Virus record (IMG/VR): IMGVR_UViG_3300048606_000075
Span: 1-64,000 of that record
DNA: 64,000 nucleotides
Source: a virus
Taxonomy: Duplodnaviria > Caudoviricetes
Strand: one strand, 5' to 3'
Shown: piece after piece, positions 10,102 to 61,943 of the stretch
How the letters are laid out: every line of letters starts with the position of its first letter
Numbering within the stretch: position 1 is the stretch's first letter
Program-made: the position numbers and the translations under genes
The notes under the pieces: model-generated
The model's database searches: none
Told to the model about the DNA's origin: nothing
Seen by the model: only the letters and a program-made list of their open reading frames with translations

Positions 10102-10134
10102 GGATCAAATTAGATGCTTGCACTGCAGATGATA

Positions 10135-17989: not shown

Positions 17990-20900
17990 TATGGCTGCTT
18001 CCTAAAAATCCAGGCAGAAACTTCGTTCGATCCCGTGCCAGCAAGATCAATCCAAGATCGAAAAATCATTGAAGTTCTTGTCAAAGACTCAATATGGGAT
18101 GCACTATTTCCTGCCCAACCATTCATCTTTGTACCTGAAATAACAGGGCCTAGGTCACTAGCCATAGTAAAACCCTTATTAATTATAGAGTAATTAATTC
18201 CACCAAAACCAACAGGTACAAGAATAAAAACATGCAATACAGCTTGCTCTGCACTCCAAGGACCGTTTCTAAACCAACCATCGATCTGGATCTCATTGCT
18301 TGAATGTGCGAGAATTCCAGCACTGCCGTCACCTTGGTGAGACAGTGCTCCAACCTTCACTCCAATGTAAGCAAGAACGTCATTGGCATAGACAATGCCA
18401 CCCTTCAAAAGAGTAGCGTCACTAGATCCAGTTAATCCAATGAACGCTTCATTAGGTTGTAGTCGTACTCTAGAAATCATTGACACAGCAGCAGAGTCAA
18501 TAGACCTAAGCTCTACTGAAATATCATTAGGTAACCCAGTAGGAACATATGAGTATAATACTGAGAATCTAGACTCATCCGCTGCAGGAAAGAATTTAAT
18601 ACTATTGTCTGGTCCAGAAAGAAGAATTCGTCGACCAACAGTACCTGTCTGCATTGAGACATTAGAAATTAAAGTATTAGCTTGAAGCCTATCGCCAGTT
18701 AATGTATTAGTTACAATCTGATCACCAGTAATCTTAGTACCCTGTAGAACAGATCCTTTGATTGTGCTACCACGAATATCAGCGGCAATCACTAACCCAG
18801 CAACGAAGTTAGATGCTGTGATAGAACCGCCCACCACGGCACCCGAAACCGTGACCCCGAGCGACGGAGACAGCTGTGCGGTCGTGGTATCCAGGTCTCG
18901 CAGCGACGCCGACGCATACGGAGCGCCCTGCCAATAGCAACCCGGCTCAAAACCTGAGCAGAACGGGGTTGGCAACGTACGGTCTCGTTCTACCTGCACA
19001 GCCGAGTACCACAGATACGACAGCAGCCGCAGCGTGCGCGCCGCGTCCGAGGTCGGCGCGTGCAGGCGGACTCGGTCTATCACACCCGTGCAGGACGCGT
19101 ACACCCGGGTCCACTGCCCCGCGATCAGCCGGGTGGGATCGGAGAAGCCGCGAGACGTGCTGGCGTCTCGCCCCTCGATCTGGGTCCAGCACGGCGTGTC
19201 CGACCAGACAAAGATCGAGACCAGGTTGCTGGTGGAGTCAGGGATGGAGACGGGAGTCAGGTTGGACGCTGAGCTGCCCGCTGTGCCGGCCCAAGTGTAG
19301 CCGGGGGTAGCACCATCAGCGTACTTGTCCAGCCCGCTAGTGCGCTCATAGAGGGCGTTGCTGACCTCCAGCACATCCCCGGTCACCATGGCCAGGGAGA
19401 GCTTCAGACGCAGCTTGGTGGTGTTCGCGGGCGCCGTCGCGGTCACGAACACCCGCTCCACCACACCCGCGCGGCACGTGATGGACGCGGCGGCGGACTC
19501 CGAAAGAACGACGTCCGTAGCACTGATCCACTGAATGATGGGGATGACACCCTGGGCCAACGACACCCGGGCGGAACACGACAGTGTCCACTGCTGCGCG
19601 GCGACGATACCGGTCACAACCGGACCCAGGACGGTACCGGCGCCCGAGGCCGCCACGGTCAACCGCAAGACGTTGTCTCGTTGAAATCCTAGAGCCGTAG
19701 TACGAACACCCGTGGTGGCCCCCACAGTCGCGGACCAACCGGTCGCATCGTTGGCGAGCGATGGGTTAATGCAAGCATTGGTTCGTGTCAGACTAGAGCT
19801 AGTCCCAGTACCAACTGTATTCTTGAAAGGAACTTCCACATAACTTGGTGTAGCTATAACAGAAGTTAGTGCCCTAGTGCGGACCGAAAACTCTCCAGCA
19901 AACACATGCTGCTGGTCATTCGTCGCTTCGCAGTTCGTAGCGGATACGAACCCGGAGCCTCCGTTAAAGCCGGGGTTATACGCTGCATTTCTCGTTGGAG
20001 CTGCGATGAAACGCATTCCATCTTGGGAATCTAGAACTGCTCTGGTGCCGGCGTACTTACTAGTAAGACTGAACACCCCAGTTGTAGCGAGCTGCGCGGC
20101 GACACTGTTATCAGGAGCAAAAAGTGTCAAACCGCTATCAGAAGCCAAGGATAGCCGCGCCCCCGTGGTCCCGGACCGCAGCATGAACGACCCAGGGAGT
20201 ACTTCCGCTACAGCTGTATTGATTGAGTTATAGGAACGCAGACCTTCAACATTAAGCTGTACACGTTGATCAGTGATATGTGCGTGGTCAACAGGACCGA
20301 GATAAATAGTCCCGTGTGGTCCTAGGTAAACTTCATCGGCATCCAGCACGCCGGACAACAGCTTAGAGACAGCGAAGCTCACAAGCTTGTCATCGGGGAT
20401 AGACCCGTCCGCGATCTGCAGCGTGCCCACCGCGCCGGCCGACAGATTCGCACGGACGATCGTCGCATCCTTGATGTTGTAAGAATCGACGGTCTGCGCG
20501 GCAATATTGCCCTGACCTGCTGTTGCACCACCTGTGAGTGTGTCAAACGCGATCTGGGACCCCAGGATCCCACCCGGCAGCGAGGTCAGGATCTTGTCTC
20601 CGTTGACCCGGACAACACCGGGCTCAGAGAACGCGCCCGACAGGACCGGACCGCCGGTGCCCAGCTGGATCTGACCAACGCTGGAGTCACTGACACCCTC
20701 CAGGATGATCCGGTTAGGCGAACCCCCCAGCGAGCGCAGCCACACGTTCGATCCGACGCGGGCGGCGTAGTTGGTCGGCAACAGCAGCGGAGCCCCGCTG
20801 AACGTGACCTGGTCGCCGAACGATGTCGGGCCACCCACCGACAGATTGCCGCCGATCTGCAAGCCATCGATGATGTTGAACTGGGACACGCCAGACAGCG

Positions 20901-21618
20901 GTCCCGTAACCGACACACCCTCCTCGGCGAAAAGCTGACCTTCGGCAACAAAATCCCCGCCGACAAATGTGTCACCAAACCTACCCATGGTGAACATAGG
21001 TAGATCAGTATCTACATCTCGAAAATCGAAAACAGCTCCACGCCCGCGACCACGCAGCAAAATCCTGTCTTCAGAAGTCGAGCTGATAGAGAAGGCAGAG
21101 TCCGGGAGGTCCACTCCCACGGCAACAGAGTTGGGGCCGACCCGGAACATCTGGGCGCCGCCGGATCTGGCTATAAAAACATTGTCATCTGTTCCGAACG
21201 GAATGTCTAAGGTAAGAGGAGCTAATCCCTCTCCTGGACTGTTGATAGTTATCTGTCCAGCATACTGAATTAACGACGCTAGCTCGGACCCCGTTACAGC
21301 ACCATTAGCTAACTCGTTCTGCTGTAGAGAGTTCGATTGAATTCGGTCGCCCGGCACGGTGCGGGGGGTGAAGAATTGACCATCGATGTCATCGGGGTTC
21401 CCGCCACCCACAGGTGCTGTTAAATCGATAGTAGTTGTTTCATCTAACTGAAAGAAAACCTTCTGAGCAGCTTCATCAGCATAAATTGTCCCCGGAGGCA
21501 TTGGACCAAGGGCATCCGGCTGGGCCGCAGGAATGATAGGCACAGCAGGTAGACGTTGCGCGCCAGTCTTAGCATCGGCTGCAACGCCCTTCATGCTAGA
21601 AGCTAATGAAAAAGCCAC
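17989..21618 (-). CDS. tail fibre/receptor-binding protein, paralog 1 (1209 aa)
   Basis: Collinear homology; follows minor tail genes. Confidence 0.8.
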   Translation of the reverse strand: MAFSLASSMKGVAADAKTGAQRLPAVPIIPAAQPDALGPMPPGTIYADEAAQKVFFQLDETTTIDLTAPVGGGNPDDIDGQFFTPRTVPGDRIQSNSLQQNELANGAVTGSELASLIQYAGQITINSPGEGLAPLTLDIPFGTDDNVFIARSGGAQMFRVGPNSVAVGVDLPDSAFSISSTSEDRILLRGRGRGAVFDFRDVDTDLPMFTMGRFGDTFVGGDFVAEGQLFAEEGVSVTGPLSGVSQFNIIDGLQIGGNLSVGGPTSFGDQVTFSGAPLLLPTNYAARVGSNVWLRSLGGSPNRIILEGVSDSSVGQIQLGTGGPVLSGAFSEPGVVRVNGDKILTSLPGGILGSQIAFDTLTGGATAGQGNIAAQTVDSYNIKDATIVRANLSAGAVGTLQIADGSIPDDKLVSFAVSKLLSGVLDADEVYLGPHGTIYLGPVDHAHITDQRVQLNVEGLRSYNSINTAVAEVLPGSFMLRSGTTGARLSLASDSGLTLFAPDNSVAAQLATTGVFSLTSKYAGTRAVLDSQDGMRFIAAPTRNAAYNPGFNGGSGFVSATNCEATNDQQHVFAGEFSVRTRALTSVIATPSYVEVPFKNTVGTGTSSSLTRTNACINPSLANDATGWSATVGATTGVRTTALGFQRDNVLRLTVAASGAGTVLGPVVTGIVAAQQWTLSCSARVSLAQGVIPIIQWISATDVVLSESAAASITCRAGVVERVFVTATAPANTTKLRLKLSLAMVTGDVLEVSNALYERTSGLDKYADGATPGYTWAGTAGSSASNLTPVSIPDSTSNLVSIFVWSDTPCWTQIEGRDASTSRGFSDPTRLIAGQWTRVYASCTGVIDRVRLHAPTSDAARTLRLLSYLWYSAVQVERDRTLPTPFCSGFEPGCYWQGAPYASASLRDLDTTTAQLSPSLGVTVSGAVVGGSITASNFVAGLVIAADIRGSTIKGSVLQGTKITGDQIVTNTLTGDRLQANTLISNVSMQTGTVGRRILLSGPDNSIKFFPAADESRFSVLYSYVPTGLPNDISVELRSIDSAAVSMISRVRLQPNEAFIGLTGSSDATLLKGGIVYANDVLAYIGVKVGALSHQGDGSAGILAHSSNEIQIDGWFRNGPWSAEQAVLHVFILVPVGFGGINYSIINKGFTMASDLGPVISGTKMNGWAGNSASHIESLTRTSMIFRSWIDLAGTGSNEVSAWIFRKQP

Positions 21619-47182: not shown

Positions 47183-48154
47183 TCATACCCTACGAGCTTC
47201 GCGCTTGCAGTCCTTGCACGCCGTCTGGTAGCCGGACGCCACAGTCTTGTCGGTGTAGTACTCGGACACCGGCTTGTTTTCCTCACAGGTCAGGCACACC
47301 CGATGCCCGTCCACCACCGGGTGGATGTGGTCCTTAGGTACGCGAGGCACGTAGTCCGGACCACGCTGCTTGGCCCGAATCGCAGCAACCTTGTCACGTT
47401 CCCTCTGCTGAGCGCACGGAACACACCATCCAGTCCGACGCCGCTTCTCACCCTTGCCAGACCTGTGTGCTTCCGCCATGGGAAGCACTTCACGGCAGAT
47501 CGTGCAGGTGAACTCCGGGTCATCGTCAGTGAGCCCGCGATTGGGCTGCGCAGCAGTGGGAGATGAAAACGCTCCGGGACGCGAGACGCCAGGGAGCCCG
47601 GAGCCAACACGGCGGACGATCTCTTCCTGCTCGGGCCACACGAACGTGGTCTCCAGGTACTCCCGGAAGGGCTCCACGGATCCGACACGCTCGATGACAC
47701 CTATAGCGTGGTTACAGAGACCACAGAGGAGACGACGAATACAACCTGTCTTGCCACACGAGCGTGGGCCGGGGCAACACGCGTGGTTGTGGTCAACTGA
47801 CAAGGCAGCGACCTTGTCACCGAACTTCACGGTAGTCTCAGGCTGCTTGCAAATAGCGCAGACGCCGCCTTGTTCCTCAAGAACAGATTGATACTGCTTG
47901 TATGTGATATTGAATTTATGCTTAAGAAATCGGTCAAGCTTAATTTCAATAGGCAAAGCCTGATGACGAGCTGACTCACGATCGTTAAAACACTTCTTGC
48001 ATGCAGAGTGATAACCACTCTTACGGCCAGTGTTCTTGTAAAACTCTTCTACTGGCTTGACCTCAAGGCAAACGTTGCACTCAAGCTTGCCGTCCACAAC
48101 CTGGACGACAGAACGAACAGAACGTACTAGTTCCACTGAACTCTCCTCAGACAC
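47183..48154 (-). CDS. endonuclease VII-domain (homing-type) endonuclease with three C4 zinc-finger repeats
   Basis: KFNITYKQY..QGGVCAIC..LSVDHNH..RRLLCGLCNHAIG; flanking CxxC..KP..EFY..G....CxxC repeats. Confidence 0.85.
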   Translation of the reverse strand: MSEESSVELVRSVRSVVQVVDGKLECNVCLEVKPVEEFYKNTGRKSGYHSACKKCFNDRESARHQALPIEIKLDRFLKHKFNITYKQYQSVLEEQGGVCAICKQPETTVKFGDKVAALSVDHNHACCPGPRSCGKTGCIRRLLCGLCNHAIGVIERVGSVEPFREYLETTFVWPEQEEIVRRVGSGLPGVSRPGAFSSPTAAQPNRGLTDDDPEFTCTICREVLPMAEAHRSGKGEKRRRTGWCVPCAQQRERDKVAAIRAKQRGPDYVPRVPKDHIHPVVDGHRVCLTCEENKPVSEYYTDKTVASGYQTACKDCKREARRV

Positions 48155-48234: not shown

Positions 48235-49224
48235 CTAGGTCACGTCACTGATCACAAATTGTTCCGGTCGGTACACTACCGGAAGGAACGATTGCTCCAA
48301 GAGGTACTGCCGAGACGAGGGGTCTTTTTCTTTCCAAGTCTTCGCAAATCTCCCTGTGAAATCAGTAGGAGCTTCGTCGTCAGCGGACGGGCCGAGCATG
48401 AACTCCATCGGCCGGTTGTCCGACAGGTTGGCAAAGATGATCTTGCCATCCGCCAAGAACAGCGTCTCGTTGCCGCCCGCGTCCTCGTAGACGGACTCCG
48501 TGGAGGTCCAGTTCAGACCCATGAAGCCCGGCATGGTGCCCGAGGAGTAGTACTCGTCACGCATGCGGTCCGACATCAGGCCAGCGGCGTTACCGTCGCG
48601 GGCGAAGGCGTCGAAGACCAACGAGAGGGTCTTCTCCGTGCAGAACGCCTCCTTGGTGGGCACCTGTCCGTCGCGGGCGATCAGGCGCTTCCACGTCCGG
48701 ATGTCGGCCACGATCTGGGAGGCCGAAGCCGATGCCCACGGCACGGCGGCCGTTGGCTTGTGGCTGGACGAGAACTTGTAGTCGATCGACGCCTGGACGT
48801 CGTCGTAGTCGAACACGAGCGAGCCCTGCATGGCCTGCCACGCGCAGAACTCCATGAAGTTGTCGAACCGGATGTTGAGGTCATTGACCTCCCGGAGTAC
48901 GGCGGCCTCGGCGTTGCGCGCGGCGAGCTGACCCGGGGTACGCAGCCAGTGGATCGTGGTCGGCTCGAATACCTTCTTCTCCCGAAGGTAGACGAACGCG
49001 GCACTTTCCTGGCTCCGACCGAGCCGGGGCACGATGTGCGCCTCGGAGTTCGGCACGTTCGGCTTGGCGACCGCTCGTGATCCCTTGATCACGTCCCACT
49101 TCGCCACCGGGTATGGCCATGGCTGGGTGGAAAGCCGGTTCTTGAGGATGAGATTCTCAGGAGCCTTGAGCTTCTCCACGACCCCCATAAGGACCGTTGG
49201 CTCCAACAGACTGATGTCCGGCAC
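48235..49224 (-). CDS. major capsid protein (lambda gpE-like family)
   Basis: 329 aa; VKYDI-type KWDVI..AKPNVPNSEA, E..AWQAMQG, WKEKDPS..LEQSFLPV; position after decoration gene. Confidence 0.88.
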   Translation of the reverse strand: MPDISLLEPTVLMGVVEKLKAPENLILKNRLSTQPWPYPVAKWDVIKGSRAVAKPNVPNSEAHIVPRLGRSQESAAFVYLREKKVFEPTTIHWLRTPGQLAARNAEAAVLREVNDLNIRFDNFMEFCAWQAMQGSLVFDYDDVQASIDYKFSSSHKPTAAVPWASASASQIVADIRTWKRLIARDGQVPTKEAFCTEKTLSLVFDAFARDGNAAGLMSDRMRDEYYSSGTMPGFMGLNWTSTESVYEDAGGNETLFLADGKIIFANLSDNRPMEFMLGPSADDEAPTDFTGRFAKTWKEKDPSSRQYLLEQSFLPVVYRPEQFVISDVT

Positions 49225-49836: not shown

Positions 49837-51036
49837 CTACTTGACGTACTGCGCGGCAGGACCATCGGTGCCGAGCAGGCGAGCAAGCTCCGCCTCGACA
49901 TCCGTCTCCTGCTTTTGCTGCTGCTCGGCGGTGGGGGCGGTGCCCTTCTCCACGGAGAGCTTCACGACCGGCTCATCGGGGATGAGCGCGTCGAACGCCT
50001 CCCGGTTGGACAGCGCCAGCCCGAGGTAGACGTCCTTCTTGGCCGGGACGATGTAGCCGGTCTGGATCAGACCGTCCACCTCGGTCTCGATGTTGCGCTT
50101 CTCCAGCGCGGCGATCCGCTCGATAGCCTGCTCGCCGGCGTTGGTCAGGCGAACATTCTGCTGAGCCAGCTCACCCACCGCAGCCACGATGGTGTCGGTG
50201 TCTACCGAACCATCGGAGTTGGTCAGCTTGGTCTCGGCCTCGGTACCGACCAGCGCGGCCCGAACCTTCTCGGCCAGCTCGTCGACATCGGGCTTGGCGG
50301 CCAGCTCGTCCTGCGCAGCAGTGAGCTTGGCTTCCGTGTCGGTGACCGAAGTCTGGGCCGTCGACAGCTGCTCCTGTAGAACAGCGACGTCGATCTTGTG
50401 ATCGGCCTTCAATTCGGCCAGAATCTCTTCTAGCGTGCGGGGCACCGCAGCCTCCTCCTGATCGCTTGCTGCGCTCAACTGCAGGAGCGCGGGCTCCTCT
50501 GTGTATTCGGCCGACGCTGCCACGATCTCCTCATAGGGATCGAGGCCAGTCACATATGGACGATTCGTGACCGCAACGTGCAAAAGCGTCGGTCCTGACT
50601 TTTTGCCAGTCTTTGTATTCGTATAGTTCAAATGCATAAAAGCGGAAGCACCAAGATAGGTCTTACCGAACTTGTCCGCATCCTGGCGAGCATCAACCTG
50701 GGCGTAGATCTTGCCTGCCTTGTCGTCCACCCGGAGGCCGAGCACCTCGCCGAGGTTGGCGGCGGGGCTCTCTACGTGGTCATTCTGGTCATTAGCCAAC
50801 GGGACCTGAACGATGTCACAGACGCTGGCGTCGAAGTTCGCCTTGAGAACCTTAGCGAACTCGCTATCAATCTTGATCTTCGTTCCCGTTACCGGGTGAA
50901 GCAATTCTCCATACGAAAGGATGTGCTTCTCAAAGATGCGTCCCTGCTTGGTGCGAGCGAGCTGAACCTCGCCCTCCAGCTCCGTCCAGTCCGCAGACGG
51001 ACTCGGCGCGATAACCGTGCTCAGCAACTCGCCCAT
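49837..51036 (-). CDS. capsid maturation protease/scaffold (Mu gpI-like)
   Basis: N-terminal domain with H and SA..LHVAVTNRPYVTGL, followed by coiled-coil scaffold. Confidence 0.8.
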   Translation of the reverse strand: MGELLSTVIAPSPSADWTELEGEVQLARTKQGRIFEKHILSYGELLHPVTGTKIKIDSEFAKVLKANFDASVCDIVQVPLANDQNDHVESPAANLGEVLGLRVDDKAGKIYAQVDARQDADKFGKTYLGASAFMHLNYTNTKTGKKSGPTLLHVAVTNRPYVTGLDPYEEIVAASAEYTEEPALLQLSAASDQEEAAVPRTLEEILAELKADHKIDVAVLQEQLSTAQTSVTDTEAKLTAAQDELAAKPDVDELAEKVRAALVGTEAETKLTNSDGSVDTDTIVAAVGELAQQNVRLTNAGEQAIERIAALEKRNIETEVDGLIQTGYIVPAKKDVYLGLALSNREAFDALIPDEPVVKLSVEKGTAPTAEQQQKQETDVEAELARLLGTDGPAAQYVK

Positions 51037-51422: not shown

Positions 51423-51823
51423 TAGACGCCCCCATCGTCAACAACGGAAGCGTCGGCCAGCTGCATTAGATAATCCCGCTGAGAGTCCCGCAGCGGCGCC
51501 ATCAACGCCACCTGCTCAGGAGTCAACCAGGACGACAACTCGTATGGCCCATCTACTGTGTCAATCTTGCAAGCATAGTGGCCGTCTCGATCAATCTCAG
51601 TCCACGAAGTGGGGCGGAGCTGCACGTCCCGGCCATCGTTGACGCCCAGACTCACCAGGTGCGGCCAGCCGTCTTCCATCGACATCACCACCAGAACCGG
51701 CGCGGACGACTGTCCCTCCGCCGCCAACGTCCCATCCGCGAGCAACGGAGCGACCTGCACGCCTTCCGGGAAATGCTCGTCTAACAACTGCTGCCATTCA
51801 ACAGCAGTGGTAGGTAATGTCAC
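51422..51823 (-). CDS. acidic hypothetical protein, candidate MuF immunity/partner 1
   Basis: 133 aa; GTGA overlap with MuF stop. Confidence 0.7.
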   Translation of the reverse strand: MTLPTTAVEWQQLLDEHFPEGVQVAPLLADGTLAAEGQSSAPVLVVMSMEDGWPHLVSLGVNDGRDVQLRPTSWTEIDRDGHYACKIDTVDGPYELSSWLTPEQVALMAPLRDSQRDYLMQLADASVVDDGGV

Positions 51824-54800
51824 AGTTCATCCTCTGGATTCCAAGTCAATTGGTGTTCCTTAATCTTATGCAAAGCCGAAGCTCTATTAGCAGGCAATAC
51901 TAGCCTATCTTCAATCGGAAGTCCACGGATCTCCGTTACACCATGGCTGTGAAGATAAGCGATAGCTTCTTGTCTATCGGCTTGGTTAGCAAACGTAATC
52001 ATTTCGATGTCATCAAGCAACGACACAGTGTTCTTAATCAATGTCTCGTTAGAACTGCCAGTGTGTGATAACTGCTTCTTCATGTTGAAGTGAGCCGAAG
52101 ACTTCTTATTGTCAATCTCTCCGAAATTGTCTCCACCATAACTATAATTAGAAGTACGCGCCAACACCTCGGTAGACAACAAGATCTGTGCGTGTGGAGA
52201 CACCCCGTTGAGCCGGGTGAACACGAAGTTCGAACTACCGTGGGACTGATCCGCTTCCGAGGACGCGCCGCCGATGAACCGGCCGAGCAGCTGCATCCGG
52301 TTCTCCGTCGAGAGCAGCCCGCCTGCCTTGACCAGCAACGGCGCGATCGACGGATTACTCAGCGAGTGTGTCGGCATAGATTGCTGGCGCAGCCAGTCAT
52401 CATCGATGTCGAAGCGCCGCCAATACGGCTGGCCACCGAACAGCTGCGGGGCCGCCGGGTTCACTCGACCAAAGCGAGGCATGTAACGCTGCTCATGCAA
52501 GAACGTATTGAACTTAGTCTTGTCCAAACGAGACCAGGCTTCGTGCCACTTCGCCAACTCCTCTTGAGCTGACATCGCGGGAGTTCCCGCTGCGCCACCC
52601 GGGATTTCCTCGGCGACGAACTTGTCGATCTCACCGTAGATGCCCTGCTTGCCATCCGAGCGCTGACCCATCGAGCCATACAGCGAGCGCCAATACTGCA
52701 ACTGTAGATCGTCTTTGGTGGCATCTTGGAGATCTAAATTCATGCCGGCCAGCGCGGCGCGGGCTTCGTTCGCGGCGGTAGGAGTGCCGTCGTAATCCCG
52801 AACCTTGATGCTCAACTGACCATGCTGAGCCTTAGCCACATTACTATGTGGATGCCAAGACTTGTAATTAATTACTGTTCCATCAGGAAGGGTAATCTCA
52901 TACGCAGTACCAGTTTGACCTTGAGAACCAGTCTTACCATTCAAAGTCAACTTGCCATCAGGGCCGATATCAGAATTCTCCAAAACAGGCTTCTTCTTAA
53001 CAACCTTGATAGGCTTGTTCTTATTCAGATCAATCGGATTATCAAGAACCTTCGCAGGTGGAACAGTCGGCTTGTACTCTGAAAAGTCTCCCATCTTAGA
53101 CTGGCCATTAGTCGCTTTGAGATCATCAACTTTCTTCATCTGGCTCTCATAGAAATCAAGAGCATTAGCATACTCTAGCTGAGCTTCTGGCCAATCCTTG
53201 AAGGCATCAGGAACCTTGCCTCCATTCAAATCATTCTGCTTCTTCTCAAGTTTAAACTTTAAATCTTCAAATTTCTCCATATGCATAGTGTTGTAATTTT
53301 TATCCCCCATCTTGTTATGATGGGAAACAGTCTTACCGGCCAGTAAGATCGCAGAAGGGAAAACCGTCAACCCGGCATCGGTGAGAAACTTCTGCTCCGG
53401 GGAAGCCGTCGAGGTATCGAACGTAGCGCCGGAAAGATCATTACTGACGTGGGCCTCCAACCAGGCCCGGAAGTTTCCGTCCGCCTGCTGCAGCAGCTGC
53501 CCGGAGATATGAAGCTCCTTGCCGGAGCCATCCTTCTTACCGATGACCTGGGAGAGCAGGTGCCCATCCTCCAGCACCGCGCCGGCAAAGAACGTGGCCG
53601 CGCCGTGGTTGCCCATCTCCTCGGCGTGATCCAGGTACTCAGAGGTGAATCCGCTGTGCACCCACTTGGACATGTTGGAGCCGGGGGCTGGCTTCTCTCG
53701 GCCCAGCTTGGAGTAGATGTCATCCCAGAATTTCTGGAACTCACCCTCCAGGCCGTTCTTGCGGGCCAGCGCCTGCTTGATCAGGTCATCCTTGTTCTTG
53801 GCCGATGTCATGCCAAAGTTGGTGCGGTTTTTCAGGCCGACATCCATGGCGTCCGACCAGGACTTATCCGGAACAGCAGCCGTCTTGCGAGCCTGGTTCA
53901 TCGACGCTCGGTACAACTCATCGACGCTGGCGTCGGGCAGCTTCTTCGCCAGGACCGCGTCGTAAACCTTCTGGTAGTAGGGCTGCTCCCAGTTCGACAG
54001 CTGACCTTGCTTCAGAGTCACCGCGCCGGGCTGTCCGAACCGCACGAACGCACGCGCGATGTCAATCGGAATGACGTGCTTACCATCTGGCGAGAGCAGG
54101 AAGTTGTCATCGTGCGCATCATCATTCGATGTCACGTAGTCCTGCACGTGTGCCTGCATGAGGTTTTTCAGTGCGGACACCGGCAGAGACGTGGGCGAGA
54201 CACCCTTCAACGTCGACTGGCTCGGGACCTTGGCCTGGAACTGACCGAACTGCCCCTCGAACTTGCCCAGCTGCGAGGTCGCCACCTGGATGCCAGCCAG
54301 CTGCGCGAGCTGGTGCGCGGCGTGCTCGATCTCCGCCCGGAACGGCTCGGGGGCGACCTTGAACAGGAACGGGTTACCATTCTCGTCTGAGACGTGGTAA
54401 ATAGTTGAGTGGCCAGCAAGAGGAGGCTGCTTAGCGTCCTTGGTGAAAGTCTTGTTAGCACCTTCAGAGAGAACGCTATACATCAACTCCTTGGTTGAAT
54501 TTTCATCCCAGTGGCTAGAAGACTTGATGGAAGTCAGCAAGTCCCCAAGCTGCTTCTTAGCCACCGCTGGCTCTTTGAATGTGTTGTCATTAGAAGTAGC
54601 GGCGGACACCGCATGTAGAGAAATCAACTCTTGCTTAGTCTGCAAAGATTGCTTTTTCAGGAAGCTAGCAACCTTCGGAGTACCCATCTTGTCCAAATAT
54701 GTATTGGCTTGAGAGTCATCCAGATTGACAGCCGCTTTCTTAGAAAGATCAATCGACGGGAAATCATGTGGCAACGGCACGACCTGACCAGGACCGTACG

Positions 54801-57800
54801 TCGGAACAGGAGCTGTCAAAGGCTTTGAAATCACACTTCCATTTTTAATATTCTTCTGGCCGAGCAAAGAGATAGAATTTGTATTATATTGATCGCCATT
54901 CTTATGGTACTTAGCCCACAACAACTTATGATGACTAGTTAAACCAGTGGGGTTCTGCATGTTAGCGTGATACAAATACGCATTAACAGTATCTTCGTCC
55001 CAACCGGTGTACTGGGACACACCACCCTCGGGCCACGAACCAGGCGGCTCTTTACCTGCGGGAAGCTCACCCGGAATGGCCGGAGCTACGGTCTTCTTGG
55101 TGAACCCGTTCTTGTTGTCTGGATGCAGTGGCGAGCCGGGGTGTCCCATCTTCCCCTTGTGACTCTTAACATTGGACGCCTCGATCTCGTACGCCTTGTC
55201 CCACTCACCTTTAGTCCAATGATCCAACCAAGCAACAACATTGGCTTTGGACTGAGTAGACATGTGCAAGCCAACGGCATGTGGATTAGGCGCCTTCTCA
55301 GCAAGCTGACCTATCTTGTACAATAAGGTAGGCTTATCAAAACTAGCAAAATTAGTATTGCCAGGAACACTGACATTAGGGATGTCAACAGTATTGCTAG
55401 ACAAGTTCGGAGTAGAAGGCTCTGGATCCTGGGGCAACGGGATCGGCTCCGAAACCGGCAGGCCGTCGAACGCACTGTCGAACTGCTTAACAATGCTTGC
55501 TGGTGAGAAATCCTTTAGTAGCTTTCCATCGCCACTTATCGACTGCATATGTCCATCAGGCGTGAACTTGTAATGCTGAACAGCAGGCGGACTAAAATAC
55601 CCATTCTTACCAGCTATGTATATATTCTGATTAAACTTTATAGCCTTCTGAAAACCCTTAGAAAGCGGAGTAGTATTAATGTCCCAAGTATCCTGATATC
55701 CAGCTTTCTTAGCCTTGACGACTAAATCATCCAACTTCTGCTGATCAGGATCCGGAACATTCACGTCCGGCGCCTTCACCTCTGGCTTGTCAGCAGCGTA
55801 TTCCACGGTGTGTGGCTTGAACCCGGCTGAGCCGCCCACCAGATAGGCCGCGAGCGCTTCCGACGACATCGAGTCGGGTCCATCCGGACCCACATGCACA
55901 GTGGATCCATCCCCCAGGGAGTACTCACCGATCAGATGCCCGTGTGAATCTTTGTTGGCACCCTTCATCCAGGAAGGGAGATCTACCTTCTCGGAAGTCG
56001 GAGACTTCCCCATCGACTGGACATGTGGCTTAGCCACATTCACATGGGTCAGCGAGTCACCGAACTCAGCGTCCTGCACCAACACCGAACCATCCGGGAA
56101 CACCGTGACACCGCCAGATTCATCTGGATAGTGTCCGACCTCTACACCATTAACATGAGGCTTACCGTTATCCTCAGATGAATCTGAAATCTTATTCCAG
56201 TTACCACTATCAATAGCTTGCTTTATAACATCAGCAGTAAGATTGGTCTTCTCTTTAGAATGGTGATTTGTCATATAACCAGTGCCGTCTGGATTGACGG
56301 TCAGCGACGAGACGGGAGCACCGGGAGATGTGTACACACCCGGACCAGGCTGATCTGGATCTGCATGCTTCGCGGTATCCGCCTCGATGCCCTTCTCAGG
56401 CTTGGCATCTTCAGGCGCGAAGTGGTCACCAATCTTCGAGATGATTTCCTGCTCAGATAGCGGACCGAAAGAATTGCCTTGATGCTTCGTAACACTGCCG
56501 TCTGGATGAATGTCATAATCTATATCAGCGGCGTTATCCGCATCATCAGAGAAACTAACACCGTGCTCGCTCTTCAATGCACTCTGGAAAGACGCGGCGA
56601 AGCCTTCTGTCTTCTTCAGGGTTGGAGCGGCCTTGGCGGCTTCGATGATTCCGGCGAGCTTCTTGGAAGACGTTCCCGAGACTTCCGTGATCGCCGGCTT
56701 GGCGCTCGAAGCCTCGGGCACAGCTGGCTCGGCATGAGCCGAATCCATCTCATCGGCCTTAGCCTGAAGTATGGTCGCAACAGCATCCTTAAGCTTGCCG
56801 TAGTGAACTTTTCCGTTGCCTCCCTTGTACGGAGCAGACAACGGATCGCTTTCGATATACGCCTTGATATCCACCTTGGACAACGGTGAATTGATGTCCT
56901 TCAACGGACCCTTCACGCCGGTCGACGGAGAGTTCTTCACCGCGTTGGCCGCGTCGATCAGATCTTGCTTAGTAACCTTCTGCCCACCGATGACCAGGTG
57001 ACCCGGAGCGGCCGGAGCCTTGGGTGGGTTCTCCTTCTGGAACGTGATGTCATCGATCTTCTTCTGCACCGCATCGGACAGCGCGGCCTTCATGCCCTGC
57101 GGGTCATCCGGAGCGGGAATGCCCAGCGCCTTGAGCATGGTTCCCGGGCCAGCCTTGGAGAACTCGTTGCCCTTGACCTGAACGGTGTGGCCCTCAGACT
57201 GCGCGCTCTCCGCGTCGACCAGGTTCTTGTACTGCTTGAGCTGATTCAGCGTGCCTGCCGGAACGCCTGGGAGATTCACCTGTGGGGAGGTGTCCTCCAC
57301 CTTCGGGGCGGGGCCCGCCGAGGTGATCGGGGAAGGCTCTGGGCTATCTAAATGCTTGTTCAGTTCCTTATGGATATTGGCGTTCTTCTCGTGCGCTGGT
57401 GCGGGAGAGCCGAACTTATCCCCGGTCATGAAGTCCCAAGACAAGCCCAGGGCCAGCGGGTTGTGTGACATCTCCTTGAGCTTCTGCTTCCAACTGGAAT
57501 CAGTGCTCATGTCAATGCCATCAAAGAACTTCTGCATCTCCAGGATCTGCGCCTGGGTCGCGTTCACACCCCACACATTCTTGGTGGGCTCCGGGGTGGG
57601 GATAGACGGCAGCGGCGTCGCGGGATGCGAAGTCTGGTGCTTGTCCAACGCATCCTGCAGCAACGCAATGACAGCTGGCTTCAACTTGCCGTAGTGAACT
57701 ACTCCGGTGCCGCCCTTAAATGCATCGGTGACGCTAGAGCTATTGGCCAAACCTTGCAGGTCCGCCTTGGCTAACGGGGAGCCGGCCGCCTTGAGCGGCT

Positions 57801-60300
57801 TCTTCACCCCGGTCTCGTTCTTAGGTGAGGCGTTCAGCGCATCCAACGCGGACGAGATCGCCGCAGGCGGATACGGAACGCCGTCCACACTGATGAACCC
57901 GGGGCCGTTGTTCTTGTGGCTATGGCCGTTGGCCTCCGGATCAACGGCATGCAGAGCACTGTGGATCGCTTCATGATCGGCGTGGCCCAGCGAGCCCTGG
58001 TGGTCCTTGAGACCGTGATTCTCCTCCAGGTGGGCAACGGCGGGCGCCTCCGACTTAGGCGTGGATCCGGTGGACGCGAGCGCGTCCTTCAGCACGTGGA
58101 TCAGCGCTGGCTTTGTCTTGTTATTGTAGTACGCCTTGAACGGCGCGGCGACCGCGTGGAAATTGCCGGCCGCGAGCGGAGAACCGACCTTCTTCAGGTC
58201 TCCCGCCACGTTGCCAGACGGGTTGTCCTCCAGCGCGTGGATCGCGTTCTGCAGCTGGCCCGAGGTCATCTCGAAGCCGCCGACCAGCGCCTTACCGGTA
58301 CCCGGAGCGGGCATTGAGTCCTTGATCGAGTCGCCATCACCCGAGACGTTGTTGAGCTTGGCGATCTGCGATGCGCGAGCGGACGGGTTGTCCGGCCCAC
58401 CGATCTTGGTGGCCTGCACGCCCGCGCCCTGCGGGTTGTACTTGATCAGGTCTCCGTCAGGGTTCAGGACATAGAGCGTGTCCTTGGACTTGCCTGACTT
58501 GTAGACCTGGGCACCCTCCTTGACCTGCACCGAGTGCTCACCAACGGAGAACAGCGACGGTCCACCCGAGACCGCGTCTCCGTGCCCGCCATCGGGTGCC
58601 TCAGCCTTGGTCGAAGCGGAAGCGCTTGCGCTGCTCTCGCCGGCCCCAGCGCCTGCTCCCGCGTCGCCTTCCGAGACATGGCCAGAGTCGGCCGAGACAG
58701 ATCCGGAATCGCTTGAAGCTGACCCGGAGTCGCCAGAAGACTTGTCTTTCTCAGCCTTCTTCTGCGCGTCCATTTCATCAAGCTTCTTGTGCCAGTCACT
58801 CTTAAAGCCCTCTGGCTCAGTCTCAACAGTCTTGCCTAAATACCCCTTAGCAATTTGCTTAATAGCTGTCTCTTTGAGTGGAATAGACTTCTCAAAGTTC
58901 TTAGAATGCAGTCTTCCGGTACCGTTATCGTGAACTTCAACGCCGCCATGAGAAGGGTGATTAGGGGTCAGATAGTGCCCAGGCGGGAGGGTGCCCTGCT
59001 TCTTCTGATCCTCGGTCGGCTCCAGCACGGGACCCGGACCGTCCGGATCAGGGACATCGGGATCGTCCGAAATCTTCTTCACGTTGCCGTGAGAATCGTG
59101 CAAAGTTAAGAACTGCGCAGTGCTCGCAGCATCAGCATCTTCGGTCTTGCCCTTATGAATGGACGTAGAAGTACCATCCTGATGCACAACAGTATGTGTG
59201 TCATCATCACTACCAGGAAGATCCACACTATAAGTGCCGGGCTTCCACGTCAAATCAGGCTTACCACCCTTGGGGGTGGCGGCCTTCGCTCCCTGTGCCT
59301 TAGCCGACAACGCCTTGGCTTGCTGTGGAGTCACAGACTTGACCTTCATAGCCGGAGCTGCGCTCTCCGGAATCTTCAGACCAGTCTGCGTGTCATAATA
59401 GTAACCAGAAACCTGCTGAACCTTGCCATCAACCACGCGCGTATAAGCACCAACATGCACGATAGTGGCAGCTATGTACTGCGAGCGATCCTTCTCGGAT
59501 GCGCTCACGAACCACTCGGCGTACGCGCGCATGCTCGCGGGCGAGGCACCGGAGCCGGACAGCGAGATCTGATCGGGGAAAATCATCACCAGACTGCACC
59601 GACAGTTCGGATGTCTCGGCGGACCTTCCAGCTTGCCCAGATAGGCAGCCGGCTCAGAAGCCGGTACAGGGAATGCATCACCCAACGGCACATGCACCCC
59701 GTGCAAGCGCAGACACAGCCCACACGGCGGCGTCAGCAGGTCGAATCGAGCCACCCAGAGCTTGTGCATCTCCGCGCCCAAGGACTCCACCACCGAGGCG
59801 AACACCAGCTCGGTAGCCACCCCACGGCCAGACTGCACCGCTGACACCACGGCGAGCACCGCACGGCGGCGCAGCTCTACCGAGATCTCATCCCTGGTAC
59901 CGCCGGCCTTCACCACAGCAACTTGCCCAACGAGAAAATCTTTAATTATCTTGTCTATGATATCCGAATTAGGAATATCAATCTGAGAAGGTGCATCGAT
60001 CGAAAGCACGCTAAGCTGTTGTTGCGCGAACCTGGTGCCCTCCTCCAACCCGGAGGACCACGCACGCCGGATCAGCGCGACCGCCGCCGCGAGCAACACG
60101 GCCGTGAGAATCGGAGAAGGATCGTCCTCCTCATCCTCCGAACCACCCGCTACAGCCACCTCCACCACCGGATAGAGCTGCTGCACCTGAGCAACAAGCT
60201 GATCCTCAGCCGTCATCGACTGAGCGCGAGACTGATCCACAAGCTGTAGCTGTTGGATCAAGTCTTGCTCGGTTTGAATGACCTGAACCGGAGCGGTCAC
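51820..60300 (-). CDS. giant MuF-family minor head protein with repeats, HipA/PI3-4K-like kinase domain and C-terminal ART-like domain (2826 aa)
   Basis: N-terminal CGLCLRLHG..GPPRHPNCRC (MuF) between portal and protease; LFK..AEIE..NDDAHDDNFLL..IPIDIARAF; THS..GGLLS..VFTR..NETLIK. Confidence 0.8.
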   Translation of the reverse strand: MTAPVQVIQTEQDLIQQLQLVDQSRAQSMTAEDQLVAQVQQLYPVVEVAVAGGSEDEEDDPSPILTAVLLAAAVALIRRAWSSGLEEGTRFAQQQLSVLSIDAPSQIDIPNSDIIDKIIKDFLVGQVAVVKAGGTRDEISVELRRRAVLAVVSAVQSGRGVATELVFASVVESLGAEMHKLWVARFDLLTPPCGLCLRLHGVHVPLGDAFPVPASEPAAYLGKLEGPPRHPNCRCSLVMIFPDQISLSGSGASPASMRAYAEWFVSASEKDRSQYIAATIVHVGAYTRVVDGKVQQVSGYYYDTQTGLKIPESAAPAMKVKSVTPQQAKALSAKAQGAKAATPKGGKPDLTWKPGTYSVDLPGSDDDTHTVVHQDGTSTSIHKGKTEDADAASTAQFLTLHDSHGNVKKISDDPDVPDPDGPGPVLEPTEDQKKQGTLPPGHYLTPNHPSHGGVEVHDNGTGRLHSKNFEKSIPLKETAIKQIAKGYLGKTVETEPEGFKSDWHKKLDEMDAQKKAEKDKSSGDSGSASSDSGSVSADSGHVSEGDAGAGAGAGESSASASASTKAEAPDGGHGDAVSGGPSLFSVGEHSVQVKEGAQVYKSGKSKDTLYVLNPDGDLIKYNPQGAGVQATKIGGPDNPSARASQIAKLNNVSGDGDSIKDSMPAPGTGKALVGGFEMTSGQLQNAIHALEDNPSGNVAGDLKKVGSPLAAGNFHAVAAPFKAYYNNKTKPALIHVLKDALASTGSTPKSEAPAVAHLEENHGLKDHQGSLGHADHEAIHSALHAVDPEANGHSHKNNGPGFISVDGVPYPPAAISSALDALNASPKNETGVKKPLKAAGSPLAKADLQGLANSSSVTDAFKGGTGVVHYGKLKPAVIALLQDALDKHQTSHPATPLPSIPTPEPTKNVWGVNATQAQILEMQKFFDGIDMSTDSSWKQKLKEMSHNPLALGLSWDFMTGDKFGSPAPAHEKNANIHKELNKHLDSPEPSPITSAGPAPKVEDTSPQVNLPGVPAGTLNQLKQYKNLVDAESAQSEGHTVQVKGNEFSKAGPGTMLKALGIPAPDDPQGMKAALSDAVQKKIDDITFQKENPPKAPAAPGHLVIGGQKVTKQDLIDAANAVKNSPSTGVKGPLKDINSPLSKVDIKAYIESDPLSAPYKGGNGKVHYGKLKDAVATILQAKADEMDSAHAEPAVPEASSAKPAITEVSGTSSKKLAGIIEAAKAAPTLKKTEGFAASFQSALKSEHGVSFSDDADNAADIDYDIHPDGSVTKHQGNSFGPLSEQEIISKIGDHFAPEDAKPEKGIEADTAKHADPDQPGPGVYTSPGAPVSSLTVNPDGTGYMTNHHSKEKTNLTADVIKQAIDSGNWNKISDSSEDNGKPHVNGVEVGHYPDESGGVTVFPDGSVLVQDAEFGDSLTHVNVAKPHVQSMGKSPTSEKVDLPSWMKGANKDSHGHLIGEYSLGDGSTVHVGPDGPDSMSSEALAAYLVGGSAGFKPHTVEYAADKPEVKAPDVNVPDPDQQKLDDLVVKAKKAGYQDTWDINTTPLSKGFQKAIKFNQNIYIAGKNGYFSPPAVQHYKFTPDGHMQSISGDGKLLKDFSPASIVKQFDSAFDGLPVSEPIPLPQDPEPSTPNLSSNTVDIPNVSVPGNTNFASFDKPTLLYKIGQLAEKAPNPHAVGLHMSTQSKANVVAWLDHWTKGEWDKAYEIEASNVKSHKGKMGHPGSPLHPDNKNGFTKKTVAPAIPGELPAGKEPPGSWPEGGVSQYTGWDEDTVNAYLYHANMQNPTGLTSHHKLLWAKYHKNGDQYNTNSISLLGQKNIKNGSVISKPLTAPVPTYGPGQVVPLPHDFPSIDLSKKAAVNLDDSQANTYLDKMGTPKVASFLKKQSLQTKQELISLHAVSAATSNDNTFKEPAVAKKQLGDLLTSIKSSSHWDENSTKELMYSVLSEGANKTFTKDAKQPPLAGHSTIYHVSDENGNPFLFKVAPEPFRAEIEHAAHQLAQLAGIQVATSQLGKFEGQFGQFQAKVPSQSTLKGVSPTSLPVSALKNLMQAHVQDYVTSNDDAHDDNFLLSPDGKHVIPIDIARAFVRFGQPGAVTLKQGQLSNWEQPYYQKVYDAVLAKKLPDASVDELYRASMNQARKTAAVPDKSWSDAMDVGLKNRTNFGMTSAKNKDDLIKQALARKNGLEGEFQKFWDDIYSKLGREKPAPGSNMSKWVHSGFTSEYLDHAEEMGNHGAATFFAGAVLEDGHLLSQVIGKKDGSGKELHISGQLLQQADGNFRAWLEAHVSNDLSGATFDTSTASPEQKFLTDAGLTVFPSAILLAGKTVSHHNKMGDKNYNTMHMEKFEDLKFKLEKKQNDLNGGKVPDAFKDWPEAQLEYANALDFYESQMKKVDDLKATNGQSKMGDFSEYKPTVPPAKVLDNPIDLNKNKPIKVVKKKPVLENSDIGPDGKLTLNGKTGSQGQTGTAYEITLPDGTVINYKSWHPHSNVAKAQHGQLSIKVRDYDGTPTAANEARAALAGMNLDLQDATKDDLQLQYWRSLYGSMGQRSDGKQGIYGEIDKFVAEEIPGGAAGTPAMSAQEELAKWHEAWSRLDKTKFNTFLHEQRYMPRFGRVNPAAPQLFGGQPYWRRFDIDDDWLRQQSMPTHSLSNPSIAPLLVKAGGLLSTENRMQLLGRFIGGASSEADQSHGSSNFVFTRLNGVSPHAQILLSTEVLARTSNYSYGGDNFGEIDNKKSSAHFNMKKQLSHTGSSNETLIKNTVSLLDDIEMITFANQADRQEAIAYLHSHGVTEIRGLPIEDRLVLPANRASALHKIKEHQLTWNPEDEL

Positions 60301-61943
60301 TAGACACTCAACTCACTTAGAGCAGCAGTCACCGCATCCTGATCTGCGGATGTCAACGCCAAAACCTCAGGGTCCAGCCACGCCCGAGCGCTGGGCAATC
60401 CGTCCGCGCTCAACTGCGACGGCAGAGCCGGCAAGTTCGTCGGGGCCGATCCTCCAGCGGGCAGCGCGGGGGCTCCACCCGGAGCGCCTCCAGGCATGCC
60501 AGGCGGCTGCTTGCCGGGGATGAACTGCATGTTCGCCGGGACACCGGGCTGCTGATCGGCCGGGACGGTGGGCAGCGGCTGGAACGGCGGCTCCGCCAGC
60601 GGCGGGCCCTGCCCCTCCATGAAGAACTTGAGAGTCTCCTCGGTCTGCTTGTCGAGAGCCTTCTCCAGCTCCTCGTACTCGATATCCAGACCCATCTCCC
60701 CGGCCATGTACTTCTCCAGCTCCAACAGGAACTTTCGAGTCACGTTCGCGCCGGTACCGATAGACGAAAGCTTATCAAACGTTGTCTTGATAGCTTCCTT
60801 CTGCTCTTCGGAGAAGGGTCCGAACTTCAGCGTTGGATACTTATCATTGCCGAAATTCCAGTCCACAAAACGTGGGGTGAGCCAGTCGTTAAAGACGGCT
60901 TCCAGCTCGGCGATGATGACATTGACCAGCACCAGGTACATGGAGTCGTTGGGGCCGCCGAAGCTAACCAACGGCGAGCCGCCACCCTGTTGGTCATCCA
61001 AGAACGGCGCCAGCACCGACTTAGACATCTGGCTGTTGTGGTGGTTGATGAAGTCCATGAACGGGAAGTCACCGAGCGACTTGCCCAGATCCTCCACCGA
61101 CCACCCGACATCCGGCACGGTCATCGACTGGGCGAGACCGAAGTCCGCCAGTCCGCGCCGGAACTCTAGAAGCTCGTTCGGGTGCGCATTCTTGGGGTAC
61201 TTACCCAGCCGAGAGCCCACGGCCCGGTGCTGCGCGGCGAGGTGCGCCAGGTAGTACAGCTTGATCTTTTTGTCATAGTGATAGAACGCGGCATTGAAGT
61301 AGGAGACACCGTAGAACGGATTCTCCTCTTCCGAGCAGGAATAATAGATCGAAGTCTTAGCGTCGATGTGTTCGTCAATTACTTTGCCGTTAGGCGTGAC
61401 AGTACGCTGTCTAAACCCGTCATAGTCACCTTGCTCTGTCACCACGAAAGATACAGTGTCAGATGGGCGGTACGCAATTTTGTCTAGTGTGTACTTGCCC
61501 TTGAGTGGGCCCTTCTTGGGCCGCGTATAGACCAGCTCGAACGGGGAGAACCCGTCCACCGTGGCCAGCAGCATCTGCGAGACCACCCGAGTGAACGGGG
61601 TCTTCATGCCGCCGTTCACCGCCGGCAGGGTGAACAGCTGGGTGACGAATTCCGCCTCTTTGTCCCCACCATCAGCGGGGATCCACGTGGCGCGCTTCGC
61701 GGCTGCCCGGGCAGGCATGGTGAGCAGCCGAAACAGCGCGCGGGCCTGCCCATCCTGGCGGCGCATCTCGGTGAGCTGCTTGACCGAGGGAACATCGGTC
61801 CGGCCCAGCGTGAACGACTTGCCGTATTGATCAAAAGCCTCAGCGAAAGGCATGCCGGCAAGCCGGACACCCATCTCCTGATTTAGATCCTTGGCTGTCG
61901 GCTTGGCCATTTCCAAGACGCCGTCATTCTTGGCCACCAACAA
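60300..61943 (-). CDS. portal protein (Mu gp29/DUF935-like)
   Basis: Follows terminase; EMRRQDGQARA, GFSPFELVY, NPFYGVSYF, HHNSQMSKSVLAPFL, WLTPRFVDWNFG. Confidence 0.88.
   Translation of the reverse strand: MLVAKNDGVLEMAKPTAKDLNQEMGVRLAGMPFAEAFDQYGKSFTLGRTDVPSVKQLTEMRRQDGQARALFRLLTMPARAAAKRATWIPADGGDKEAEFVTQLFTLPAVNGGMKTPFTRVVSQMLLATVDGFSPFELVYTRPKKGPLKGKYTLDKIAYRPSDTVSFVVTEQGDYDGFRQRTVTPNGKVIDEHIDAKTSIYYSCSEEENPFYGVSYFNAAFYHYDKKIKLYYLAHLAAQHRAVGSRLGKYPKNAHPNELLEFRRGLADFGLAQSMTVPDVGWSVEDLGKSLGDFPFMDFINHHNSQMSKSVLAPFLDDQQGGGSPLVSFGGPNDSMYLVLVNVIIAELEAVFNDWLTPRFVDWNFGNDKYPTLKFGPFSEEQKEAIKTTFDKLSSIGTGANVTRKFLLELEKYMAGEMGLDIEYEELEKALDKQTEETLKFFMEGQGPPLAEPPFQPLPTVPADQQPGVPANMQFIPGKQPPGMPGGAPGGAPALPAGGSAPTNLPALPSQLSADGLPSARAWLDPEVLALTSADQDAVTAALSELSV

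Follow-up and report, generated by a model that had tools for sequence, protein, structure and literature searches.

In a 64,000-nucleotide stretch of the genome of a tailed phage (positions 1 to 64,000 of the IMG/VR virus record IMGVR_UViG_3300048606_000075; hereafter the window), a single minus-strand gene at 51820-60300 encodes a protein of 2826 residues. Its C-terminal part carries two predicted enzyme folds, an atypical protein kinase and an ADP-ribosyltransferase (ART) closest to DarT, and its N-terminus resembles the MuF minor head proteins. We propose, with a probability of roughly 60%, that the protein is a virion-internal ‘polyvalent’ enzyme cargo which, by analogy with known systems, would be ejected together with the DNA and would modify host molecules early in infection. 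The open reading frame (ORF) starts with a GTG codon that overlaps the stop codon of the portal gene (TAGTG), and its TGA stop overlaps the GTG start of the following 133-residue ORF (GTGA). A preliminary description of the window had read the region as one ORF of 8.5 kb, and its coordinates proved exact. Full-length relatives with 45-57% identity are found in independent metagenomes, and their N-termini align from residue 1-3; thus, the ORF, its start and its fusion to MuF are real and not an artefact of assembly. The features discussed below are collected in Table 1.

The C-terminal module belongs to a large protein family. A full HMMER scan with residues 1627-2826 as the query against 1.84 billion representatives returned 717 clusters (E ≤ 1e-3), of which 226 also passed E ≤ 1e-30; with few exceptions, they are proteins of 1000-4000 residues. 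The kinase and the ART region occurred together in 159 of the 161 relatives that were retrieved, the other two being fragments. The module ended a median of 8 residues from the C-terminus of these relatives, and the two enzyme folds are separated by about 430 conserved residues. What varies across the relatives is the N-terminal part, the fusion to MuF and the presence of a Nudix domain. All ten homologue clusters that were sampled were either named ‘hypothetical protein’ or had no name, and none had a precomputed Pfam domain except Nudix. A search of IMG/VR, put forward as a check in the preliminary description, found 18 related loci, in all of which (18/18) the gene order is terminase, portal, MuF, giant protein, small ORF(s), protease, capsid. 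Judged by the distribution of its homologues, the kinase-ART end is a conserved, syntenic component in a large clade of uncultured phages. The earlier picture of tandem payloads on a MuF carrier has to be given up in this respect: the kinase-ART end is one conserved module, present in 717 clusters, and in more than half of the loci (10 of 18) MuF is encoded on its own.

The kinase assignment was assessed on an AlphaFold (AF2) model built from 35 sequences, with a mean predicted local distance difference test score (pLDDT) of 88 and values mostly above 90 in the kinase domain. In a VIA structure search, the domain matched PI4KIIα (4PLA) with Z 16.2 and a root-mean-square deviation (rmsd) of 3.6 over 226 aligned residues, followed by CtkA (Z 15.3), the actin-fragmin kinase AFK (13.0), and HipA and MavQ (both 12.3). 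In total, 79 chains were matched at Z ≥ 8, and the best matches listed were all kinase-fold enzymes. Foldseek returned at least 500 kinase matches at E ≤ 1e-3. Pfam profiles gave two colinear, partial matches: HipA_C (PF07804) to residues 1971-2016 (E 2e-4, 21.4 bits, below the cut-off of 30.5) and PI3_PI4_kinase (PF00454) to residues 2052-2086 (E 0.028, 14.8 bits, below the cut-off of 27.1). Because both profiles remained sub-threshold, the domain was assigned to this branch of the superfamily and to neither the HipA nor the PI3_PI4_kinase family. The fold thus bears out the HipA/PI3-4K-like atypical kinase that had been suggested from motifs in the preliminary description.

Conservation was counted over 162 family representatives at ≤50% identity. 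The ATP-binding Lys, the helix-C Glu, the D-x-H-x-x-N catalytic loop and the metal-binding Asp are all retained in the family, these residues being placed by motif order and by the colinear partial Pfam alignments and not by residue-level superposition. The counts were 148 for K1981, 141 for E1992, 157 for H2051, 159 for D2054, 151 for N2059, 149 for D2061, 95 for H2063, 142 for N2066 and 153 for D2080. The motif residues named earlier, K1981, D2061, H2063, N2066 and D2080, therefore stand, whereas E1990 does not: that position holds Glu in 77 representatives and Asp in 53, and the strongly conserved Glu is E1992. On the strength of the model, the domain looks like an active kinase of the atypical branch in which the catalytic-type residues are kept. 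PI4KIIα, Helicobacter pylori CtkA, the Physarum actin-fragmin kinase, HipA and Legionella MavQ share this bilobal fold, and in these atypical kinases a D-x-H-x-x-N catalytic loop is followed by the metal-binding Asp, as it is here. Unlike HipA, the protein has no HipA N-terminal domain and is not accompanied by HipB.

For the C-terminal end, residues 2427-2826 were modelled with a mean pLDDT of 91.4 and the model was searched with VIA, independently of Foldseek. The four best matches were DarT structures of DarTG systems (PDB 8BAQ, 7OMU, 7YK3 and 7OMV; 153-158 aligned residues), with Z 9.4 (rmsd 3.6, 158 aligned), 8.6, 8.0 and 7.8, where 9.4 lies moderately above a usual background of 7-8. SopF (6.5), Tpt1 (5.4), CopC (5.4) and OspC3 (5.2) came next, so that all eight best matches belong to the ART superfamily, and unrelated folds appeared from Z 5.0 down. 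The best Foldseek match was likewise DarT (probability 0.94, E 0.05). The fold search thus supports the ART-like end that had been noticed earlier, and the predicted structure makes an ART fold at residues ~2630-2809 likely. A candidate for the catalytic Glu of an ART is E2752, which is retained in 160 of the 162 representatives and opens a predicted strand (model residues 326-330); it lies about as far from where the aligned region ends as does DarT1 E152, a comparison made without residue-level superposition. F/Y2694 (156/162) and R2696 (150/162) are also kept, and R2668, D2684, Y2719 and D2724 are near-invariant. S2664/T2665, which follow the first strand, F/Y2694 and R2696 are candidates for the first two residues of the class motif (H-Y-E or R-S-E). 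H2645 was considered as the ART histidine of the family and rejected, as it is kept in 53 of the 162 only.

Sequence profiles did not lead to this fold. The ART end was recognised by none of the profile libraries searched; the DarT profile (PF14487), run against all six frames of the entire record, matched nothing at E ≤ 10 and was also absent from the Pfam scans, and searches of the sequences of solved structures with the protein and with the family profile gave nothing meaningful. Among the viral structures of BFVD there was no match at E ≤ 1e-3; the weak, compact local matches obtained there were to uncharacterised proteins of an iridovirus, a baculovirus and giant viruses, which may correspond to the DarT-related ORF28 family mentioned in PMC9503650, an unconfirmed candidate. 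The identity to DarT is ~10% and, in contrast to DarTG, no macrodomain or NADAR partner is present. DNA, the substrate of DarT, is a possible substrate of the ART end as well.

Between the two folds, the listed conserved positions of the profile are R2180/K2181, G2233, H2328 and Y2384. The part directly before the ART core (residues 2427-2629) has two conserved motifs, E/Q2533-x-x-Y-W-R and G-x-P-x-W-x-R-x-D; it gave weak structural matches (Z ≤ 4.5), and the alignments of SopF, CopC and OspC3 extend into its helical part.

The N-terminal 260 residues were assigned by transitivity and position. Pfam Phage_Mu_F (PF04233) matched residues 169-237 with E 1e-3 and 20.3 bits, below the curated cut-off of 29.6 bits, and PHROG 115 (minor head protein) matched the N-terminus at 1e-5. 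After the portal gene, ten of the 18 related loci carry a distinct gene of 260-390 residues whose product matches residues 1-260 (phmmer, E 1e-6 to 1e-18). Phage_Mu_F was the top Pfam family in all eight (8/8) of these separate genes that were scanned, and one of the eight scored 46 bits, which exceeds the cut-off. The position directly downstream of the portal gene is also that of MuF and SPP1 gp7 minor head proteins. We accept residues 1-260 as a probable MuF domain on these grounds, and the MuF-type N-terminus of the preliminary description is borne out by its location after the portal gene and by homology to the separate MuF genes of relatives. MuF is a separate gene in most relatives; as far as the sequences compared here indicate, its fusion to the kinase-ART module is a peculiarity of this subclade.

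These features can be joined into one sequence of events. As inferred from SPP1 gp7 and other MuF proteins, the MuF domain would bring the protein into the procapsid at the portal. It would be followed in the chain by ~1400 residues of repeat-rich, low-hydrophobicity spacer and then by the C-terminal module of ~1200 residues, with an atypical kinase and a DarT-like ADP-ribosyltransferase that both look active. The protein would leave the capsid with the DNA, and in the first minutes of infection the two enzymes, using ATP and NAD+, might modify host molecules (protein, DNA or lipid), in parallel with T4 Alt and the T7 kinase. By the precedents of SPP1 gp7 and T4 Alt and by published predictions, a packaged and ejected multi-enzyme protein appears to be the most economical reading. 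The Nudix insertions in close relatives, which fit a theme of NAD and ADP-ribose, count for the cargo reading as well.

Several points weigh against this proposal. Its placement in the virion is drawn from analogy, and in most relatives the module is unfused to MuF, so that loading by a MuF domain of its own would not apply there. A role in assembly would be just as compatible with a core gene that is conserved and syntenic. None of the three domain assignments (MuF, kinase and ART) reaches the cut-offs of the profile libraries; they rest on predicted structures and transitivity, and the H/R and Y/S positions of the ART are candidates only that cannot be mapped residue by residue. In the protein itself, E2050A and K2081I depart from the family consensus in the kinase domain, both changes being common to the ten closest relatives, as do G2521N, E2533Q, R2670Q and P2710T further towards the C-terminus. 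Finally, none of 50,697 phage records contains the ART end in a cultured phage.

The two small genes that follow the giant gene bear on how the enzymes might be controlled. The 99-residue family is present in nearly all related loci, with conserved H7, G17, Y27 and W52 in its alignment, and the 133-residue ORF is conserved in a subset of related loci only. Neither ORF had a significant match in the libraries searched, and neither matched a macrodomain (DarG) or NADAR; for the 133-residue ORF there was no PHROG family, and its best Pfam match was BARF1_ig2 (E 0.0073, 16.9 bits against a 26-bit cut-off). Complex prediction of the 99-residue protein with residues 1946-2826 gave a median score of 0.32 (0.28, 0.32 and 0.63), compared to 0.00 for the best control; the runs share at least 74% of contacts, and the pLDDT of the small partner was at least 81. 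Of 80 solved complexes used for calibration, 58 reached the mark, as did 2 of 110 mismatched pairs; passes at 0.60 or under comprised 7 of those 80 complexes and both of the passing mismatches. The tool rates a pass at such a score as more often wrong than right unless the pairing is likely beforehand. It is conceivable that the two small genes keep the enzymes silent, or help in loading, in the producing cell.

The same layout could belong to a MuF polymorphic toxin of the type described by Jamet et al. (2017, PMC5576092), in which C-terminal enzymes from lysed lysogens would kill competitors and the two small ORFs would be immunity proteins. As in those toxins, MuF stands right after the portal gene, is extended by far more than 100 residues with toxin-type folds, and is followed by small ORFs, here translationally coupled and of 133 and 99 residues (below 150). 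The presence of the 99-residue family beside the module in nearly all loci, the weakly supported complex with it, and the toxin role of DarT and HipA in toxin-antitoxin systems (PMC11543638) all point in this direction. However, conservation in the family is highest at the C-terminus, and the N-terminal part is variable, the reverse of what is expected, and for this reason competitor killing, one of the functions floated in the preliminary description, fits poorly. The protein also differs from the toxins of Jamet et al. in having two enzymes, ~2500 extra residues and, in most relatives, a MuF that is not fused. Those toxins are encoded by temperate phages, whereas here no integrase is present in the 89.8-kb source record (66% complete by CheckV) and no close copy of the protein in 185,579 species genomes, both of them weak tests for a prophage, and the nearest cultured relative is a 133-kb Microbacterium phage. 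We regard the toxin explanation as quite unlikely. A separate reading, speculative and of little more weight, is that the phage has turned a weapon of defence to its own use: the DarT-like domain, once ejected, would ADP-ribosylate host DNA and so halt replication, or would do so to the phage's own DNA as a shield. The PI4K-II-like kinase acting alongside it might even have as its substrate the phosphatidylinositol lipids that are peculiar to actinobacterial membranes, and in the producer the small conserved partner would silence the DarT-like domain.

Action late in the producing cell or in the capsid deserves more attention, improbable as we judge it to be. Here, the targets of the two enzymes would not lie in the next host but would be the DNA or the virion proteins of the phage itself, modified for example against restriction, or the giant protein would be mainly an internal organiser of the head or of the DNA end. 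A core gene that is syntenic within the head module in every relative found, and is expressed with the assembly genes, would suit such a role, as would the DNA-modifying DarT enzymes as the closest ART structures and a long repeat region that could be structural. In addition, a non-homologous protein of 1991 residues occupies the same slot in Microbacterium phage Magritte, which suggests that the slot needs a giant protein. Against this, a fold likeness at ~10% identity with no match of the DarT profile leaves the substrate unfixed, and the published precedents for ARTs of the head module are injected enzymes (PMC9503650). The conservation of catalytic-type residues over hundreds of diverged clusters argues against a purely structural role, but not against enzymes that act late. 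The same conservation meets the idea that the enzyme folds are relics and that the protein serves solely as a non-catalytic spacer or scaffold: no profile match exceeds its threshold and several consensus residues are altered in the 2826-residue protein, but K1981, D2061, N2066, D2080 and E2752 are kept here and in 142-160 of the 162 representatives, and the models are confident, with pLDDT 88 for the kinase and 91 for the ART. We therefore hold a relic to be highly improbable, and the packaged and ejected enzyme cargo is the reading carried into the comparisons below.

The preliminary description did not recognise a protein of this size and combination as described, which does not hold in that form, since multi-enzyme MuF or polyvalent head effectors have been published (PMC5512222, 2017; PMC9503650, 2022). 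Polyvalent proteins contain 2-15 domains and include MuF-ART and MuF-Nudix fusions and kinases, and their delivery to the host along with the DNA is predicted there, too (PMC5512222, PMC9503650). The protein studied here resembles those of Iyer et al. (2017, 2022) as a giant polypeptide in a head context with MuF, several enzymes, variable architecture and predicted injection; ARTs are the commonest domain there, and Nudix and kinase domains occur too. Here also, the kinase and the ART share one chain within the head module, and the architecture varies in Nudix, MuF fusion and N-terminal part. The differences lie in the enzymes. The kinases of Iyer et al. are truncated and of the Ser/Thr/Tyr type, in phages of the Verrucomicrobia-Chlamydia group and Bacteroidetes, whereas here the type is that of PI4K-II/CtkA/HipA; their MuF-fused ARTs are Alt/VIP2 and N4-ART, whereas the one found here is DarT-like and matches no profile; and their enzyme set is shuffled, whereas here a conserved pair is fixed. 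In the literature searched and in four profile libraries, we found no description of this PI4K/HipA-like kinase family or DarT-like ART family, of the fixed kinase-ART pairing with its ~430 conserved residues, or of its status as a core head gene. Thus, the new part is the kinase family paired with a DarT-like ART; the idea of head-packaged enzyme cargo has already been published as a computational prediction.

T4 Alt and T7 gp0.7 provide the functional model, as they act on host proteins at the very outset of infection, by ADP-ribosylation or phosphorylation; Alt is carried in the T4 head and injected (reviewed in PMC5512222 and PMC9503650). Neither has a sequence relationship to the protein described here. 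Alt is a member of the R-S-E clade and reaches the head by means of a capsid-targeting sequence instead of MuF, and gp0.7 is expressed early and is not packaged. Unlike in those systems, the two predicted activities are combined in a single chain. DarTG is a bacterial anti-phage defence, whereas here a DarT-like fold is part of a phage head-module protein.

Cultured phages with members of the same kinase family were sought by tblastn of the module against the 50,697 phage records, where the kinase part alone matched, and weakly. In Mycobacterium phage Onyinye, gp16 (QHB37422.1, 1340 residues; L021:5140-9162) matched the kinase family profile with 106 bits at residues ~190-448. Its C-terminal end is a canonical VIP2/C3-type ART (PF03496, E 6.6e-8), and its GenBank label is ‘ADP-ribosyltransferase’. 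Phrappuccino gp195 (YP_010059884.1, 2030 residues; L023:1-6093), labelled ‘hypothetical protein’ in GenBank, has the kinase at residues 28-272 (114 bits), and its gene adjoins one for a ‘virion structural protein’. Both proteins show the kinase motif D-W-x-L-S-N-H-D-x-H-x-G-N ... G-I-D-K-G, as in the module family. Both are also giant proteins beside virion or packaging genes, and in Onyinye the kinase is likewise paired with a C-terminal ART. They differ in that gp16 has a VIP2/C3-type ART instead of a DarT-like one and the kinase of gp195 is N-terminal with no recognisable ART; neither is fused to MuF, and the region at residues 2202-2629 is absent from both. In giant proteins from actinobacterial phages, one and the same kinase thus occurs with either of two unrelated ART families, which argues that the pairing is functional and not accidental.

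Proteins that a phage injects along with its DNA are at work ahead of all phage gene expression. To our knowledge, only a handful of them have been studied, namely T4 Alt, the N4 RNA polymerase and P1 Dar. The present family comprises hundreds of unannotated giant head-module proteins whose constant part is a confident kinase fold and a DarT-like ART fold. Should the pair prove active and injected, siphophages would have in it a common two-enzyme device for takeover or counter-defence, and a DarT-type enzyme, so far known as a defence against phages, would be one that phages use. For comparison, only about 3% of siphophages had ARTs in one survey (PMC9503650). The cultured M. smegmatis phages that carry the kinase make a part of this testable now.

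Between MuF and the kinase-ART module, the protein is less uniform than had been thought. The preliminary description took ~1700 residues as repeats and linkers; repeats and linkers are indeed present, but the stretch is not undivided filler, since a conserved domain at residues ~1650-1860 had gone unnoticed. This domain gave no lead in Pfam, NCBIfam or the ESM Atlas (queried with residues 1640-1900). The variable spacer before it can be aligned to the closest relatives only, and contains eight short h-x-P-D-G motifs, a Ser/Gly/Ala tract at residues 521-580 and three repeats of ~80-110 residues. A single repeat unit is found at the N-terminus of the short-form relatives P0032, P0043, P0050, P0055, P0083 and P0102. 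In the close relatives P0003 (residues 581-710) and P0005 (residues 924-1052), a Nudix domain (PF00293, E 1e-14) is inserted in the spacer, at the place where the 2826-residue protein has its Ser/Gly/Ala tract.

Table 1. Parts of the 2826-residue protein and neighbouring genes, in positions of the window
Feature	Residues or length	Positions	Strand	Basis and remarks
Whole gene (P0001)	2826 residues	51820..60300	-	MuF, variable spacer and conserved kinase-ART module
MuF-like head domain (probable)	1-260	59521..60300	-	Pfam, PHROG, homologous separate genes
Variable spacer	261-1630	55411..59520	-	Pro/Gly/Ser/Thr/Ala/Lys/Glu/Asp-rich; composition and motifs
Repeat copy 1	667-743	58072..58302	-	Self-BLAST of chunks
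Repeat copy 2	799-907	57580..57906	-	Self-BLAST; E 2.5e-16 to copy 3
Repeat copy 3	1099-1206	56683..57006	-	Self-BLAST of chunks
Conserved domain preceding the kinase	~1650-1860	54721..55353	-	Conservation profile; in 114 of 161 relatives
Predicted atypical protein-kinase-like domain	1946-2201	53698..54465	-	PI4K-II/CtkA/AFK/HipA branch
Predicted alpha/beta and helical region	2202-2426	53023..53697	-	AF2 secondary structure
Predicted beta-sheet and helical subdomains before the ART core	2427-2629	52414..53022	-	AF2, pLDDT ~90
Predicted ADP-ribosyltransferase fold	~2630-2809	51874..52413	-	Closest to DarT
133-residue ORF	133 residues	51422..51823	-	Start overlaps stop of the giant gene; homologues after the giant gene in loci L003, L018 and L016
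99-residue ORF	99 residues	51123..51422	-	Small-protein family between giant gene and protease; phmmer network, 16 loci
Protease/scaffold gene		49837-51036	-	Head module
Major capsid gene		48235-49224	-	PHROG 29, 2e-40
Portal gene, directly upstream		60300..61943	-	PHROG 113, 3e-31; 45% identical to the portal of Microbacterium phage Magritte
ORF in terminase position	656 residues	61954-63924	-	Homologous to the pre-portal ORF of related loci, E about 1e-137 to 1e-160

The giant gene lies in a minus-strand structural module in the order terminase, portal, giant gene, two small ORFs, protease, capsid, with a tape measure protein of 2545 residues farther along. The ORF in the terminase position matched no PHROG family at E ≤ 1e-3. 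Magritte (133 kb) is the nearest cultured phage, with a capsid protein that is 60% identical. This similarity, together with a ‘Candidatus Nanopelagicales’ label on one metagenome-assembled genome among the relatives, points to an actinobacterial host, and the source is probably a large siphophage of actinobacteria. Where the window has its giant gene, Magritte has a MuF protein of 265 residues (gp15) and the 1991-residue protein mentioned above (gp17; gene 17, L002:7049-13024), which sits between MuF and the scaffold gene. Magritte gp17 was rejected as a homologue, as it has no detectable similarity to the 2826-residue protein or to the family profile; it gave a faint hint of GNAT only (PF00583, E 1.2e-3).

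Three further observations concern other parts of the window. A 323-residue endonuclease VII/HNH-type gene (47183-48154, minus strand; PHROG 2633, 4.5e-37) lies directly after the capsid gene, within the structural module. GC content is 0.44 at 10001-12000 and 0.50-0.64 elsewhere in the window. Downstream of the tail genes, at 10749-21618 on the minus strand, three consecutive ORFs encode proteins of almost the same size (1204, 1208 and 1209 residues), which suggests that they are tandem paralogues; they may be fibre or receptor-binding proteins.

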